64,000 nucleotides of DNA from Bacteroidota bacterium. GTDB taxonomy: Bacteria; Bacteroidota; Ignavibacteria; UBA10030; SZUA-254. The DNA lies in NCBI GenBank assembly GCA_033854175.1, contig JAWOKN010000018.1, positions 22,039 to 86,038 of the forward strand. Direction: 5' to 3'. Made by a program: the position numbers and the translations under genes. Shown piece by piece: positions 2,909 to 25,730 of this stretch (positions are counted from its first letter, which is position 1; each line of letters starts with the position of its first letter). The notes beneath the pieces are model-generated. The model was not told the origin of the DNA and searched no databases. It saw only the letters and a program-made list of their open reading frames with translations.

Positions 2909-5900
2909 CTATTTCATCAAAGTCATTTTTTTGACGTCAGTAAATCCGGTATGACCGCCTCTTCCGGGGAAGGGGTTCGCAGCATCGAGTTTGTAAAAAA
3001 AGATACCGCTCGGAAGCCTGCTCGCATCATACGATATGTGGAACGTGCCCGGACCCTGGTTCGCATCGACGAGCGACGCGACGCGTTGTCCCAGCGTGTT
3101 GTAGACATTCAGCCGGACATGCGATCGGGCCGCGAGTGAATATGTCAATATCGTTGTTGAATTAAACGGATTCGGATAATTTTGGTACAAGGAATAGGCA
3201 AGCGGGGCCTCCGATTCCCTCTTCACATCGTCCGAGATCCGTTGCTGATACTTCACCAGGGTGAACACGCTCCAGGTTTGTCCCGACGTGGTCCCGGCCA
3301 CAATGACGCCGGTGTCGCTGTCAATGACAAGATCCGCGGGGACAATACTCGCATTGTGGGATTCAGACATCCGCGCGGTCCAGAGAATATTCCCGGATGT
3401 ATCATATTTCAATGTTATGGCGTCCGATATACCGTTTGAGTCCGTGCTCACACCGGTCATATAGATCTTCCCGGCCCGGTCCAGGACCATTTTTTTCAGC
3501 AGATTATCGCTCGAGGGTGCCCCGCTGTACCTCTGCACCCACTCCTGCTGTCCGTCAGGGGTATATTTGATGAGGATGAATTCCGGGTAGGTAAAATAGG
3601 CATTGTAGCTTGTGCCAGCGACATAGATATCCCCGTTCTGTCCCACCGCTACCGACACGGGTTCGTCCCTGTTGTTCGCGGGTCCGTTGTAGAGGGCGAC
3701 CCATTTCTGAACTCCCGCGGTGTCGTATTTCACCGTGACGATATCGTGCTCCGTCGTGGCACTTAATGTCCAGCCCGTCACGTAGATGTTCCCGTCAGAA
3801 TCCGCCGCGATCGCTACCGGACGGTCATCCAGATGAGAGGGGCCGTCATAGATCGCAGCCCACCTTTGGGTTCCGGTCGGTGAATACTTAACGGTGGCAA
3901 AATCCGTCGAACGGCGGCCGTTTCCACTTAATCCTGTCACATAGACGTTTTCGGACCTGTCAACCACCAGTGCAGTCATAAGGTCATTATCATCGTATGC
4001 GTCGTTGTACTGCGCCGACCACTGCTGAATGCCCGCGGGGGAGTATTTTACCGTGCTGAAATCGAAACCCGTTCCTTCATTGTAGGTGTAGCCGGATACA
4101 TAGACCGACTGCAGCCCGCTTACCGCAAGATGCGTTGCGAAGTTGTAGCTGCTCCCCGTCGCGCTGAAAGTTTTCGTCCAGTCGATCATCCCTTCGGGCG
4201 TGTACTGCATCGTGAGATAATTGAAGGAGGGCGCGCCGATTTCCTGGTCGTACCCGGTAATGACCAGGTTCCCGTTACCCATCATGTCGATGTCCCTCCC
4301 GATGTTCAGACTGTTGGCAGTCCCCTCATAGTAGTCACTCCAGATCTGGTTCCCGCCGTCATCACACTTGAACGTCGAACATGAGATCGACAGATTGGCA
4401 CTCTCGCTCTGCCCCGTAACATAGACATTTCCGTCCGGATCGGCGGTCACCGCACCCGTCATATCGCCGCTCGTCCCGGGGCCGTCATATCGCACCGGCC
4501 ATGACTCGATGGGCGGAAAGAGATATTTTATGATTGCAAAATCATACCCCGTCTGATCGTCGTAACTTGTGCCCCCGACAAATACGTTCGCACTGGAATC
4601 GACGACGATGCCGACTGCCTCATCGTCCAGACTCGAAGATCCATCGTACCGCTGAATCCACTGCAGGGCACCGTAGATATCATACTTCAACGTCGCAATA
4701 TCGATTCCTGATCCGGAACCCAGGCTGTTGCCGACCACATAGATATCCCCGGCAATGTCTGTCGTCAACGAGACGGCATAGTCGCTTCCATGGACTGGTC
4801 CGTCGTACTCCGCCCTCCAGGCGAGAACACCCGACGTATCATACTTCAACGTCAGAAAATCGAAACTCGACGCTGCATGATATGCCATTCCTGCAATGAC
4901 CGGAAAACCCTTGGGATCAAGCACGAGCCCCATCGGCTCCTTGTCGGATGTTTCGTTCCCCTGATAAATTGCATTCCAGATGAGATCCCCCGCCGTCGTG
5001 TATTTCAGCAACACGACGTTTGATGAGGTTTCCCCGCCATAGATTTTCCCGGTTACGTAAACGATATCATTGACATCGACGGCGATTGCCCGCCCGTAGT
5101 CCGCACCGTCCCCGGGTCCGTTGAAATACTTCGCCCATTGCTGCACACCGTTTGTGTCATACTTCAACAGCAGAATGTCATTCGACGTGTTCGGACGGAC
5201 CGTGGTTCCCGTGATGTAGATATTCTGTTCGTGATCCATCGCGATACCGGAGGGAATATCGTCGTGGTTGTACCAGAAATTGTACCGGCTTGCCCAGAGC
5301 AGATAACCATCCGGAGTGTATCGCAGCGTGACAATATCGTTGAAGGTGTTCGGGCTGTAGCTTGTACCGGTAACGATAATCCCTCCGTTGCCATCGATGG
5401 CCAGAGCCACAGCCTTGTCATCCAGACTATCGGGACCGTTGTACGTCTGGATCCAGGATACAGCCCCCGAGGATGACACGACCGACGTGAGGATGTCATA
5501 ATCCCCCTTCTGGCTTCTTGCATACCCCGCCAGCACCAGATTCTGATTCTGGTCAAGTTTACACGCCACCACCGACGGGTTGATGAGATCCGGAAGAATG
5601 GTCTTCCATATAAAATTGAGTTTGTTATCGTATTTCACGACCGCAATCGATTGCCCGTTCGAACCACAGAGGTAGATATGGCCGGTCGGATCGACCGCCA
5701 TTCCACCCAGCCGGTCATCGGTGTTCCCGAGATCTACCGTGATCGCGAGCTGGCCCTGCTGATAATATGAATACTTCAACACCTCGATGTCAAAACTGTT
5801 CGCGATTACCGGTCCGCAGATAAAAATGTTGGTGTTGTTGTCATTCACGATACCCGTCGGAACAGCGTCACTTCCGTTCGGGACAAAACGGTCGGTGAGG

Positions 5901-15721: not shown

Positions 15722-17290
15722 TTACTTTGCGTATGCGATGTGCCGGGTCTCGCGGATCACCGTAACCTTGATCTGACCGGGAAACCCCATTTCCGCCTCA
15801 ATTTTTTTGGCGATATCATGCGCAAGCTGGTCAGAATGGATATCATCGATTTTGTCATGTTCGACAATGACCCGGATCTCCCGGCCTGCCTGGATGGCAT
15901 ACGTCGTGGAGACGCCGTCAAACGACTTTGCCAGGGTCTCAAGCTGCGCCAGCCGTTTTGCATACGCTTCCACCGATTCACGGCGGGCACCCGGCCGGGC
16001 GCCACTGATCGCGTCAGCCGCCTGAACCAGTGCCGCGATCGGATGATCCATCGGAATGTCCTCATGATGGGAACCGACCGCGTTGACCACGATCGGATGC
16101 TCACCCAATTTTTTCGTCAGATCGAACCCGATCAGCGCATGCGGCCCTTCGATGCTCCGGTCGACCGTTTTACCGATGTCATGCAGGAGTCCGGCCCTTT
16201 TTGCCAGATTCGCATCCAACCCGAGCTCGGCCGCCATCAGACCGCACAGGTGAGCGACTTCGAGACTGTGCGAAAGAAGATTCTGACCGTAACTCGAACG
16301 GTACTTCATCCGTCCGATATGGTAGAGAAGTTCCTGGTGCGCCCCGTGCAAACCCGCCTCGAGCAATGCGTTCTCCCCCGTATGGAGGAGTTCCTCATCG
16401 AGCTCCTTCCGCACCTTTTCAACAACCTCTTCGATACGCGCGGGATGGATCCGTCCATCGGCAATAAGCCTCTCCAGCGCGATCCGGGCAATCTCCCTGC
16501 GGAGCGGATCAAATCCGGAGAGGATGACCGCCTCGGGAGTATCGTCAACGATGACATCTATCCCCGTTGCAGCCTCAAAGGCACGGATATTCCTCCCCTC
16601 CTTGCCTATGATCCGCCCTTTCATTTCATCGTTTTGAATCTGAAGGACACTGACCGTCGACTCCACACAATGATCCGCAGCGGTACGCTGGATGGCCTGA
16701 ATAATGATCTTCTGCGCCTCCTTCTTCCCGTCCATCCGCGCGGCGTCCCTGATGTCCTTCAGCATCTGCGCGGCCTCGCTTTTCGTCTCGTTCACCATAT
16801 TTTCCAGAAGAAGCTTCCGCGCCTCTTCACGGGTAAATCCGGACACCCTCTCGAGCTTCTGATTTTCCTCCTGGATCAGCTTCCCCAGAATTGCCTGCTT
16901 GTCCTCAAGCTGCTTTGACCGATCATCGAGAAGCCGCTTTTGCTCGTTGAACTCGCGCTCCTTTTTATTGACCAGCTCAACCTTCCGCTCAAGGTTGTCC
17001 TCCCTTCCCTGGAGTTGTTTTTCAAATGACTGAAGTTTGTTGCGCTTTGCGTTGGCCTCGTGGTCAAATTCCTGTTTTTTCTTGTACCACTCGTCCTTGA
17101 CTTCAAGCAGCTTTTCTTTTTTGATGTTCTGCGATTCCTTCTCCGCATCGGCAAGGATTTTTTTCGCCCGGTCTTCCGCACTTGAAATTTTTGCCTGACC
17201 CAGATGATTGTTCACGTACCAGCCTACGGCGAACGATACCCCCGCCAGTACCACCGCCATAGGTATGAGAATATAGAATGCGAATGTCAT
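15722..17290 (-). CDS. rny: ribonuclease Y
   Basis: 522 aa. N-terminal transmembrane helix, long coiled-coil (E/K/Q-rich), KH domain (GKEGRNIRAFEAATGIDV) and HD domain (HSLEVAHL...LLHDIGK). Confidence 0.95.
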   Translation of the reverse strand: MTFAFYILIPMAVVLAGVSFAVGWYVNNHLGQAKISSAEDRAKKILADAEKESQNIKKEKLLEVKDEWYKKKQEFDHEANAKRNKLQSFEKQLQGREDNLERKVELVNKKEREFNEQKRLLDDRSKQLEDKQAILGKLIQEENQKLERVSGFTREEARKLLLENMVNETKSEAAQMLKDIRDAARMDGKKEAQKIIIQAIQRTAADHCVESTVSVLQIQNDEMKGRIIGKEGRNIRAFEAATGIDVIVDDTPEAVILSGFDPLRREIARIALERLIADGRIHPARIEEVVEKVRKELDEELLHTGENALLEAGLHGAHQELLYHIGRMKYRSSYGQNLLSHSLEVAHLCGLMAAELGLDANLAKRAGLLHDIGKTVDRSIEGPHALIGFDLTKKLGEHPIVVNAVGSHHEDIPMDHPIAALVQAADAISGARPGARRESVEAYAKRLAQLETLAKSFDGVSTTYAIQAGREIRVIVEHDKIDDIHSDQLAHDIAKKIEAEMGFPGQIKVTVIRETRHIAYAK

Positions 17291-17326
17291 ACACCCTCCA
17301 TCGGAATATGTCTCACCGTCACGTCT

Positions 17327-17592
17327 GAAAAATAAAAAACCGCCCGCAGCCGACTTCGTCGTGTCTATTGAAGAATCTCATGGTAGACACAGTGGGTACT
17401 CCCCTGAACGTTTCTTACCTCCACTGATCGCACAGTCTCCGGAAGGGACGTTGCAATTCCCGCTTGCGCGGGTGAGGCCCGTAATACGACGTCCATGAGT
17501 CGAGTTCCCTATTAAAGTTACTTGTCAGATTCTTTAATATGTTTGACTCAGTCACCGGAATAGCGTGTATCCCGGATGGGCTTGCGGTGCGG
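17327..17592 (-). ncRNA. candidate structured ncRNA (possibly 6S/SsrS-like) or rny leader, in the zapA-rny gap
   Basis: 356-nt gap with no ORF. On the minus strand an extended -10 element (TGaTAGAAT, ~17600-17608) lies ~7 nt before CCGCACCGCAAGCC. That stretch can pair over 12 bp (two 1-nt bulges) with GGCUGCGGGCGG ~230 nt downstream. The distal strand is followed at once by UUUUUUAUUUUU, ~35 nt before the rny ATG. Internal hairpins are present (CCCGCGCAAGCGGG with a GCAA tetraloop; GUGUCUA...UAGACAC). Position directly downstream of zapA mirrors the zapA-ssrS synteny of other bacteria. Coordinates are approximate. Confidence 0.3.
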
Positions 17593-17646
17593 TTTCTCCA
17601 TTCTATCATCGCACCACGTTGTATGGAAAAGAACAGGAAGATCGCG

Positions 17647-17943
17647 TTACACTGAAGCGGTCATGAACTGGTCGAGATATTCGCCAATCCGTGCAGCTTC
17701 TGATTCTATGTATGTCGTTATCGACCGACTTTTTTCGCGCTCCTTGAAAAGATCTTCGGTGATATTCAACGCGGATAATACAGCAACGGTAAGAGGCGGT
17801 TGCTCAGGGATTTTTTCATGTATCGAATTAATCATCTGATCCACATAGCTGGCGACACGTTTCGTGAGCTCTTCACTCTCACCGCGTAAAGGATATTCGG
17901 AACCAAATATTTTAACCTTTATACTTCGTCCGTCAGTTGCCAT
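17647..17943 (-). CDS. zapA: cell division protein ZapA
   Basis: 98 aa, ZapA fold signature (IKVKIFGSEYPLRGESEEL...VAVLSALNITEDLF). Confidence 0.85.
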   Translation of the reverse strand: MATDGRSIKVKIFGSEYPLRGESEELTKRVASYVDQMINSIHEKIPEQPPLTVAVLSALNITEDLFKEREKSRSITTYIESEAARIGEYLDQFMTASV

Positions 17944-18026: not shown

Positions 18027-18407
18027 TTACAAATATGAATTTATTTTTGCAATTAACTCGCGTATCCGCTCCTTGAGGATCTCCCTCTCCTCGTGGGAGA
18101 ACATGTGCTGCCCGTTATCGCCGATTAATTGAGTGTTCTCATTCCGGACCTTTTTCAGCTCCTGCTCCCGAACGAGAAGCTCCTCCCGCAGCGCCGTCAG
18201 ATCCTGTTCGAGCGATTGAATCTTCTGGGAGCTCGTTCGCTCAAGATCGGCAAGTTTATGATTCAACCGGCCGTTCTCACCCTGAAGCTGATGGATGAGT
18301 TCACCCGCCTTGCGAACCTTTTCCCAAACAGGTTTAAAGATTTCTTCTAACAACTGCGAATCCTTCGCAATTGCGGCTTCTGTTTCAGCTGTTTGTTGAT
18401 GATTCAC
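18027..18407 (-). CDS. coiled-coil protein (ZapB-like?), hypothetical
   Basis: 126 aa, almost entirely heptad-repeat coiled coil (LADLERTSSQKIQSLEQDLTALREELLVREQELKKVRNEN). Immediately upstream of zapA, so a ZapB-like function is only an inference. Confidence 0.45.
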   Translation of the reverse strand: MNHQQTAETEAAIAKDSQLLEEIFKPVWEKVRKAGELIHQLQGENGRLNHKLADLERTSSQKIQSLEQDLTALREELLVREQELKKVRNENTQLIGDNGQHMFSHEEREILKERIRELIAKINSYL

Positions 18408-25215: not shown

Positions 25216-25289
<74 letters not shown>

Positions 25290-25306
25290 TGGTAAGGCTT
25301 CTGGCG

Positions 25307-25392
25307 TGCCGGGGACCGGAATCGAACCGGCACTCTCCTTGCGGGGAACAGGATTTTAAGTCCTGTGCGTCTACCAGTTTCGCCACCCCGGC
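25307..25392 (-). tRNA. tRNA-Leu (anticodon TAA), long variable arm
   Basis: 86 nt: GCCGGGGTGGCGAAACTGGTAGACGCACAGGACTTAAAATCCTGTTCCCCGCAAGGAGAGTGCCGGTTCGATTCCGGTCCCCGGCA. Anticodon loop CTTAAAA; class II variable arm. Confidence 0.9.
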
Positions 25393-25458
25393 CGATGAAG
25401 GCAATGTCAAAAGTTTACAAAAAGGTTGATCCCCTGCTTCCTTTTTGAATTGCCTGAG

Positions 25459-25530
25459 AGGCGCCGGGCGGATTCGGACCGCCGCATAAAGGTTTTGCAG
25501 ACCTCTCCCTTACCACTTGGGTACGGCGCC
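25459..25530 (-). tRNA. tRNA-Cys (anticodon GCA)
   Basis: 72 nt: GGCGCCGTACCCAAGTGGTAAGGGAGAGGTCTGCAAAACCTTTATGCGGCGGTCCGAATCCGCCCGGCGCCT. Anticodon loop CTGCAAA; discriminator U as in Cys tRNAs. Confidence 0.85.
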
Positions 25531-25655
25531 AGGAACTTTTTAAAATAATGCCCCGCCATCTGTACAGACCGGATGCGGCAGGGCGCGGCATCATACTCGT
25601 GCCAGATCATGATCCTGCCGGAAAACCGGCGAGGGATCTCTCTGACATGACCTTG

Positions 25656-25730
<75 letters not shown>

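Follow-up and report, generated by a model that had tools for sequence, protein, structure and literature searches.

What is encoded in the 356-nucleotide (nt) gap between zapA and rny, the gene for RNase Y, on the minus strand of the 64,000-nt stretch of contig JAWOKN010000018.1 analyzed here (the window)? An original prediction, made from the letters of the window alone, proposed that the gap holds a 6S-like structured RNA with its own promoter, and offered a leader or attenuator of rny as the alternative. 6S RNA is said to be present in almost every bacterium and is 160–200 nt long (PMC8414754). Our results make it highly probable that the gap RNA, with its length of about 260 nt, is an expanded 6S RNA (ssrS) from a bacterium of the Ignavibacteria type. 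As such it is a divergent new member of a known, nearly universal family. The expectation of a 6S-like RNA downstream of zapA is supported by matches of the Rfam 6S model (RF00013) to homologs of the RNA, by the linkage of the window to these homologs through nhmmer and a covariance model (CM), by covariation and by zapA synteny.

Conservation of the RNA between zapA and rny

The RNase Y encoded in the window shares 84% identity with the one from a metagenome-assembled genome (MAG) of Ignavibacteria from groundwater, and its 80 best relatives all come from Ignavibacteria, Melioribacteraceae or 'Bacteroidota' MAGs; the window is part of a genome of the Ignavibacteria type. Our homolog set consists of 80 loci that encode close relatives of this protein. 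In 67 of them, an nhmmer search with the gap sequence locates a homolog immediately upstream of rny, with expectation values (E) from 4e-57 to 7e-3.

We also built a CM, called R1, from 16 close relatives, which makes it a narrow model. The two variable insertions were cut out of the alignment and the 49-pair structure was checked pair by pair, leaving 183 positions. The ends of the RNA for alignment were set by MAFFT-anchored trimming, as a regular-expression search over-extended many 5' ends. CM R1 matches the window at 17338–17565 (153.8 bits, E 7.6e-30) and finds the RNA in 77 of the 80 loci. In the three loci that it misses, the DNA available upstream of rny is shorter than 170 nt. Every related locus that reaches far enough upstream thus has the RNA between zapA and rny: rny is adjacent in all 77 and zapA is directly upstream in 74. 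This is a fixed arrangement in the lineage, and the synteny of zapA and ssrS that had been noted for E. coli and many other bacteria holds here as well.

Structure and covariation

All of the sequence details that had been pointed out in the gap are indeed there when it is read from the minus strand. An extended −10 element (TGaTAGAAT, 17608–17600) is separated by a 7-nt spacer, GGAGAAA, from the 5' strand of a long-range helix. In this helix CCGCACCGCAAGCC (17592–17579) pairs with GGCTGCGGGCGG (17351–17340), 227 nt away, to form 12 base pairs (bp) with two single-A bulges. The distal strand runs directly into a run of T residues (TTTTTTATTTTT, 17339–17328), and the ATG of rny follows at 17290, 37 nt past the T-run and preceded by GGAGGG at 17299–17294. 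The GNRA hairpin CCCGC-GCAA-GCGGG (17472–17459) is also real.

The stretch folds far better than expected from its composition. RNAfold assigns 271 nt a free energy of −105.3 kcal/mol compared to −76.5 ± 4.8 kcal/mol for 200 dinucleotide shuffles, none of which is as good (z = −6.06).

On 57 CM-aligned homologs, an alignment that was fitted to the structure and so somewhat inflates the figures (an independent MAFFT result agrees in direction), 93.9% of the cells are paired compared to 78.8% in column shuffles and 38–48% when the partners are slid by 1–3 columns; the covariation score is 0.435 compared to 0.18 and 0.05–0.09; and 42 of the 49 pairs change on both sides compared to a mean of 26.3 and to 12–18. 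Not one of 500 column shuffles reaches the observed value on any of the three measures. These 57 are the sequences without an insertion in the closing stem, because CM R1 misplaces the 5' strand of that stem in the window's own clade, owing to a 30-nt hairpin inserted there. RNAalifold, applied to the independent MAFFT alignment of 67 sequences, returns 26 pairs, 18 of them with a compensatory change, including five of the seven outermost pairs of the closing stem. The number stays at 26 because strands from different clades are offset by one column in the MAFFT alignment.

Hence, the long-range closing helix covaries, and so do all inner helices. All 13 pairs of the closing stem (helices 1–3) change on both sides among homologs, and compensatory changes are found even inside the window's own clade. 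In the second helix (P2, helix 6) seven of eight pairs do so, while 98.6% of the cells stay paired. The GGG and the CCC that flank the central bubble are invariant and CACCCAC is conserved. The window has a closing stem of 12 bp plus two flanking A-U pairs. Its central bubble, which separates P2 from the invariant GGG/CCC, comprises 17 nt of the 5' strand and 15 nt of the 3' strand. In short, both the sequence and the structure of the RNA are conserved, and its architecture is that of 6S RNA, with closing stem, second helix, central bubble and inner stem.

Relation to the 6S family

Among 38 homologous loci scanned with Rfam (20 loci, then two sets of nine), RF00013 matches five, at 47.7 (L037), 46.9 (L049), 44.4 (L039), 39.3 (L017) and 31.7 bits (L069). 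The model has 187 positions and a gathering score of 46.4 bits. In the set of 20 loci, L037 is the one match above this score; the two sets of nine contributed the other four. All five matches span model positions 1–187 and lie at the boundaries of the conserved RNA, with E down to 1e-8 in a local search and from 3e-6 to 1e-5 in searches of 62–67 kb. In L037 the match (2738–2981) falls exactly on the stretch that is homologous by nhmmer; its alignment to the model keeps the conserved GGGAG.../...CACCCACC and carries a 58-nt insertion in the apical loop. In alignments of homologs to RF00013 this apical insertion measures 46–63 nt, and the branched apex of the window is its counterpart. The RNA of the window is tied to the matching loci by nhmmer (E 1e-8 to 1e-57), and its core is 59–70% identical to those of L037, L039 and L017. 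The 6S reading is supported because RF00013 matches homologs from end to end and because nhmmer and CM R1 link the window to them.

At the coordinates of the RNA the only other Rfam match is STnc180 (20 bits, E 0.11), which overlaps the 5' end of the RNA in L037. 6S-Flavo (RF01685) has no match in the window or in the 38 homologous loci at the thresholds used. A CRISPR-DR28 match on the plus strand of the window (17452–17475, 23.1 bits, E 0.1) is the reverse complement of the apical GNRA hairpin, is not part of a repeat array and was rejected as spurious.

Several observations weigh against a 6S RNA. The original prediction had suggested a search with RF00013 and had named the lack of a hit as a result that would count against it. 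In the window this is what we obtained: there is no match at the gathering threshold, and none at E≤10 on 17200–17750. The homologous RNA matches in five loci. The gathering score is reached in only two of the 38 loci tested (L037 and L049). The reverse search is not significant either. On E. coli K-12 (L081), CM R1 places a match over the whole length of the model at 2981–3167 (+) compared to ssrS at 2984–3166, with 5.2 bits, E 1.4 and rank ten. That these boundaries nearly coincide with the annotated gene is suggestive, although the score is not significant. Canonical 6S RNA has one terminal loop, and the branched apex of the gap RNA departs from it. At about 260 nt in the window and about 190–290 nt across the family, the RNA also exceeds the canonical 160–200 nt. 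It does contain the inner stem (P3/P4), and this stem covaries. Finally, the unconstrained minimum-energy fold (−101.1 kcal/mol) is more stable than the canonical fold (−93.3 kcal/mol) and closes the bubble strands into local hairpins.

Two insertions can account for the failure of RF00013 on the window: a 30-nt one in the closing stem and an apical one of 49 nt. The apex is branched in 77 of 78 family members, with two hairpins in 54 and three in 23, and measures 27–76 nt (median 54). In the three-hairpin form the second arm is split, often with a conserved GCCUUCGGGY hairpin (UUCG tetraloop); it occurs in L018, L020, L023, L024, L026–L029, L031, L032, L034, L037, L038, L040–L045, L050, L051, L057 and L064. 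The closing-stem insertion (23–34 nt), which precedes the next helix, is present in all 20 sequences of the window's clade, and other lineages are without it. The inserted sequences are unrelated to each other, and each forms one hairpin of 6–11 bp (mean z = −3.4). With its branched apex and its length of about 260 nt, the RNA has expanded the canonical 6S element and has not lost it.

Local hairpins and a possible 6S mechanism

The unconstrained fold prefers two local hairpins. On the 5' side UAUUAAAG (17539–17532) can pair with CUUUAAUA (17517–17510), and on the 3' side GUGUCUA (17390–17384) with UAGACAC (17367–17361); either hairpin excludes P2. In an alignment-free test, a sequence's own arms pair better than arms taken from other sequences in 41 of 57 homologs for the 5' hairpin and in 40 of 57 for the 3' hairpin. 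This complementarity is kept in about 70% of the homologs. After a product RNA has been made on 6S RNA of E. coli or B. subtilis, P2 is opened and a hairpin forms in the 3' strand of the bubble. The 3' local hairpin is consistent with a 6S mechanism of this kind.

By analogy with these two 6S RNAs, binding of RNA polymerase by the gap RNA is putative and could work as follows. The rod with its open bubble would imitate an open promoter and occupy the active site of the polymerase holoenzyme with the housekeeping sigma factor, so that accumulation of the RNA would damp transcription. Upon a nutrient upshift the polymerase would copy the 5' strand at the edge of the bubble (about ...AAAGAAUCUGAC..., 17535–17524) into a short product RNA, which would unzip P2. 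The freed 3' strand could then fold into the GUGUCUA/UAGACAC hairpin and the RNA would be released.

Other explanations for the RNA

Could the RNA act only in cis? Under this explanation, it would be a structured leader or attenuator of rny, in which the helix and the T-run terminate transcription and read-through from the zapA operon or from a local promoter sets the amount of RNase Y, without any trans function on RNA polymerase. The position of the RNA would fit. It adjoins rny in 77 of 77 loci, the median distance of 32 nt to the start codon leaves room only for the T-run and the ribosome binding site (RBS), and in the window the terminator-like stem and T-run end 37 nt before the ATG. In the 26 of 77 loci without a T-run the RNA must even be on the rny transcript. 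But a leader of rny does not account for the homology to RF00013 in five loci or for the 6S bubble with its GGG/CCC signature. The structure is equally conserved with or without the terminator, and we saw no alternative terminator/antiterminator pairing that involves the closing stem. Adjacency is no argument against 6S either, since co-transcription of ssrS with a downstream gene is normal, as in E. coli ssrS-ygfA (PMC7641849). We consider an exclusive leader function highly improbable. What survives of the alternative in the original prediction is that rny is close and probably co-transcribed, and that the RNA may have an additional role as a leader; the 6S reading is favored.

It is also highly improbable that we are dealing with a different, undescribed noncoding RNA that merely resembles 6S in being a rod with an internal loop, and that the Rfam matches are borderline chance. 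One could argue for this from the Rfam scores, which are at or under the threshold (31.7–47.7 bits), from the window scoring nothing with RF00013, from the atypical apex and length, and from the reciprocal search of E. coli ssrS, which is not significant. Chance would have to explain, however, why five independent loci match one family over the full model at the exact boundaries of the conserved RNA, with the E-values given above, and why the most conserved nucleotides are the most conserved 6S positions. The zapA gene upstream agrees with the known context of ssrS as well.

Lastly, the gap had been described as free of open reading frames (ORFs). It contains no credible gene, but three mechanical ORFs of 43–64 amino acids (aa) overlap it, at 17365–17496 (−), 17415–17609 (−) and 17361–17498 (+). 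If one of them were a real gene, the conservation would be that of a protein. Homologs carry many indels whose lengths are not multiples of three (23–34 nt for the closing-stem hairpin, 27–76 nt for the apex), so these ORFs are not conserved coding frames, and substitutions are compensatory in helices without a bias toward third codon positions. On the indel pattern we reject the protein-coding reading, whose probability is negligible.

Expression and the relation to rny

An independent promoter scan finds TTTCCA-18-TAGAAT with a TG extension at 17629..17600 (−), that is, on the −10 element noted originally. Across 67 loci, −10-like hexamers are about 2.7-fold enriched at −19 to −6 before the RNA, at no fixed position. 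The idea that the RNA has its own promoter is weakly supported by a good element in the window and by the enrichment, whose position is loose. Judged from the sequence, the RNA gene probably has its own promoter, with the predicted extended −10 in the window. The 5' end of the RNA would be at about 17595–17593, 5–7 nt past the −10 element, and the 3' end would lie within the T-run (17339–17328).

Upstream of the RNA, 28 of 77 loci carry a block, CTGTTCTTTnCCATA, past the zapA stop codon and 26–57 nt before the RNA; the background of GTTCTT is 0.06 per 100 nt. The loci are L001–L016, L022, L025, L030, L036, L039, L046, L049, L061, L065–L067 and L074, and in the window the block is at 17622–17636 (−). 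Its GUUCUUU is complementary to AAAGAAC in the 5' strand of P2 and could compete with P2 in a transcript that reads through from zapA.

The space between the RNA and rny is short. The start codon of rny is a median of 32 nt past the RNA (77 loci), and the space consists of the T-run and a GGAGG RBS. Of the 77 loci, 51 have a run of at least four T past the closing stem; the other 26, mostly of the Melioribacteraceae and Ignavibacteriaceae types, lack it. With no T-run in these 26 loci, the RNA there would belong to the rny transcript and would need processing to be set free; co-transcription with rny is likely in these loci. Loci without a T-run include L047, L052, L055, L056, L058–L060, L062, L063, L068–L073 and L075–L080, where the RBS of rny follows within about 15–25 nt. 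Where there is a T-run, it carries a conserved interruption, TTTTTTATTT(T), in most lineages (17328–17339 (−) in the window). The closing stem and the T-run together may act as a leaky terminator, so that rny would be expressed at least partly by read-through. By analogy with ygfA in E. coli, we infer that at least some transcription of rny passes through the 6S gene.

A bolder version of this idea is that Ignavibacteria have no separate gene for 6S RNA, which would instead form the structured 5' portion of the rny transcript. Read-through or processing at the closing stem and T-run would then be needed to make RNase Y. The 6S RNA would be cut from the leader of the rny mRNA by RNase Y itself or by a different nuclease, and two lineage-specific expansions, the branched apex and the hairpin in the closing stem, would provide extra contacts or serve as processing signals. 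We regard this version as speculative and rather unlikely. If it were true, the level of an RNA that sequesters polymerase would be coupled to the level of the main endonuclease of mRNA decay. For B. subtilis, it could not be demonstrated that RNase Y has a specific role in the turnover of 6S RNA (PMC10578484).

Features of the locus

The elements of the RNA and its neighbors are collected in Table 1. The gene order on the minus strand is pheS, pheT, a ZapB-like ORF, zapA, the 356-nt gap, rny and coaE. The ZapB-like ORF (18027–18407 (−), 126 aa) adjoins zapA upstream, looks like a coiled coil and matches Pfam ZapB weakly (E 9.7e-5, 23.2 bits, under the cut-off of 31.5); tblastn finds it in 22 related loci. 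At the Rfam gathering threshold the window matches only four transfer RNAs (tRNAs). Their genes are clustered at 25216–25728 (−) and score 60–75 bits with RF00005.

Table 1. Coordinates of the RNA, its parts and the adjacent genes in the window.
Feature	Position	Strand	Evidence
zapA, upstream neighbor	17647..17943	−	Pfam ZapA, E 3.3e-16
Conserved block CTGTTCTTTTCCATA, just past zapA stop, overlapping predicted −35	17622..17636	−	GTTCTT in 28/77 loci
Predicted sigma-70-type promoter: −35 TTTCCA 17629–17624, 18-nt spacer, TGaTAGAAT 17608–17600	17600..17629	−	promoter scan, sequence
Probable 6S RNA gene (ssrS homolog), ~260 nt	17330..17595	−	RNAfold z, CM R1, homologs matched by RF00013
Closing stem P1, 5' strand AACCGCACCGCAAGCC	17579..17594	−	pairs 17351–17338; covariation
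Clade-specific 30-nt hairpin CCGGGAUA-CACGC-UAUUCCGG in closing-stem 5' strand	17549..17578	−	20/20 clade-1 sequences
P1c	17547–17545 with 17360–17358	−	
P2 5' strand UAUU-A-AAGAAUCU, putative template region for product RNA	17527..17539	−	pairs 17378–17366
Central bubble 5' strand, 17 nt, GACAAGUAACUUUAAUA	17510..17526	−	unpaired in consensus, between P2 and invariant GGG
P3 5' strand GGGAACUCGACUCAUGGACG, starts with invariant GGG	17490..17509	−	pairs 17410–17394; helices 7–8 covary; aligns to RF00013 GGGag... in homologs
P4 5' strand UUACGGGCCUC	17474..17484	−	pairs 17424–17415; helices 9–10
Branched apical domain, 49 nt: GNRA hairpin 17472–17459 and second hairpin 17457–17427	17425..17473	−	2–3 hairpins in 77/78 members
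P4 3' strand GUGGAGGUAA	17415..17424	−	consensus structure
P3 3' strand CGUUCAGGGGAGUACCC, ends with invariant CCC	17394..17410	−	aligns to RF00013 ...caCCCACC in homologs
Central bubble 3' strand, 15 nt, ACUGUGUCUACCAUG	17379..17393	−	consensus structure
P2 3' strand AGAUUCUU-C-AAUA	17366..17378	−	pairs P2 5' strand
Closing stem P1, 3' strand GGCUGCGGGCGGUU	17338..17351	−	sequence, covariation
T-run TTTTTTATTTTT directly past closing stem; together resemble intrinsic terminator	17328..17339	−	sequence
rny (RNase Y), downstream neighbor	15722..17290	−	Pfam RNase_Y_N, KH, HD domains; RBS GGAGGG 17299–17294

Significance and comparison with known systems

A 6S RNA at this position would fill an annotation gap for a whole lineage: RF00013 reaches its threshold in two of 38 loci, and finds nothing in the window, whereas all 77 loci that offer enough sequence contain the RNA. 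Linkage of zapA and ssrS is known in beta- and gamma-proteobacteria (PMC7641849). Finding it also in the distant Fibrobacteres-Chlorobi-Bacteroidetes (FCB) group would point to an old or repeatedly selected association of a cell-division gene with 6S RNA. The family further suggests that 6S RNA can accommodate considerable additions to its apex and within its closing stem, which should help to build better search models and to define the parts that must contact RNA polymerase. The tight arrangement of ssrS and rny raises the hypothesis that transcription control is coupled with RNA decay. Our literature search, outside of which lie the main surveys (Barrick 2005; Wehner 2014), found neither 6S RNA together with Ignavibacteria nor a linkage of 6S and rny.

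How does the RNA compare to the 6S RNAs that are already known? With RF00013 (E. coli ssrS, B. subtilis 6S-1) it shares the rod, closing stem, second helix, large central bubble and inner stem, the conserved GGG.../...CACCCAC around the bubble, and the potential to form, on the 3' side of the bubble, a hairpin like the one that follows product-RNA synthesis. It differs in length (about 260 compared to 160–200 nt) and, as a whole family, in an apex of two to three hairpins (27–76 nt) instead of a terminal loop. The clade of the window adds a hairpin of 23–34 nt in the closing stem, and the copy in the window is under any reportable Rfam threshold.

Divergent 6S RNAs such as 6S-Flavo have been found by comparative genomics (PMC2864571). 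Like the gap RNA, 6S-Flavo (RF01685, Bacteroidetes) is a divergent 6S type of the FCB group that general 6S searches missed (PMC2864571). The RNA of Ignavibacteria differs in that RF01685 has no match to it in the window or the 38 loci, and it is closer to RF00013.

The genomic context can be compared in the same way. The order zapB-like/zapA/ssrS in the window is like the order zapB/zapA/ssrS in proteobacteria. E. coli K-12 is annotated as zapA-ssrS-fau, and there too the RNA is directly downstream of zapA, with a protein gene close behind it. Here that next gene is rny, not ygfA/fau or EVE. In PMC7641849, which cites Chae et al. 2011, E. coli ygfA is described as transcribed through ssrS. 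In E. coli ssrS-ygfA, as in ssrS-rny, the protein gene follows within tens of nucleotides without room for its own promoter, and for ssrS-rny this spacing implies co-transcription with processing, or read-through of a terminator. The difference is that the downstream gene in Ignavibacteria encodes RNase Y, a general endoribonuclease, and that a stem and T-run lie between the two genes in most loci.

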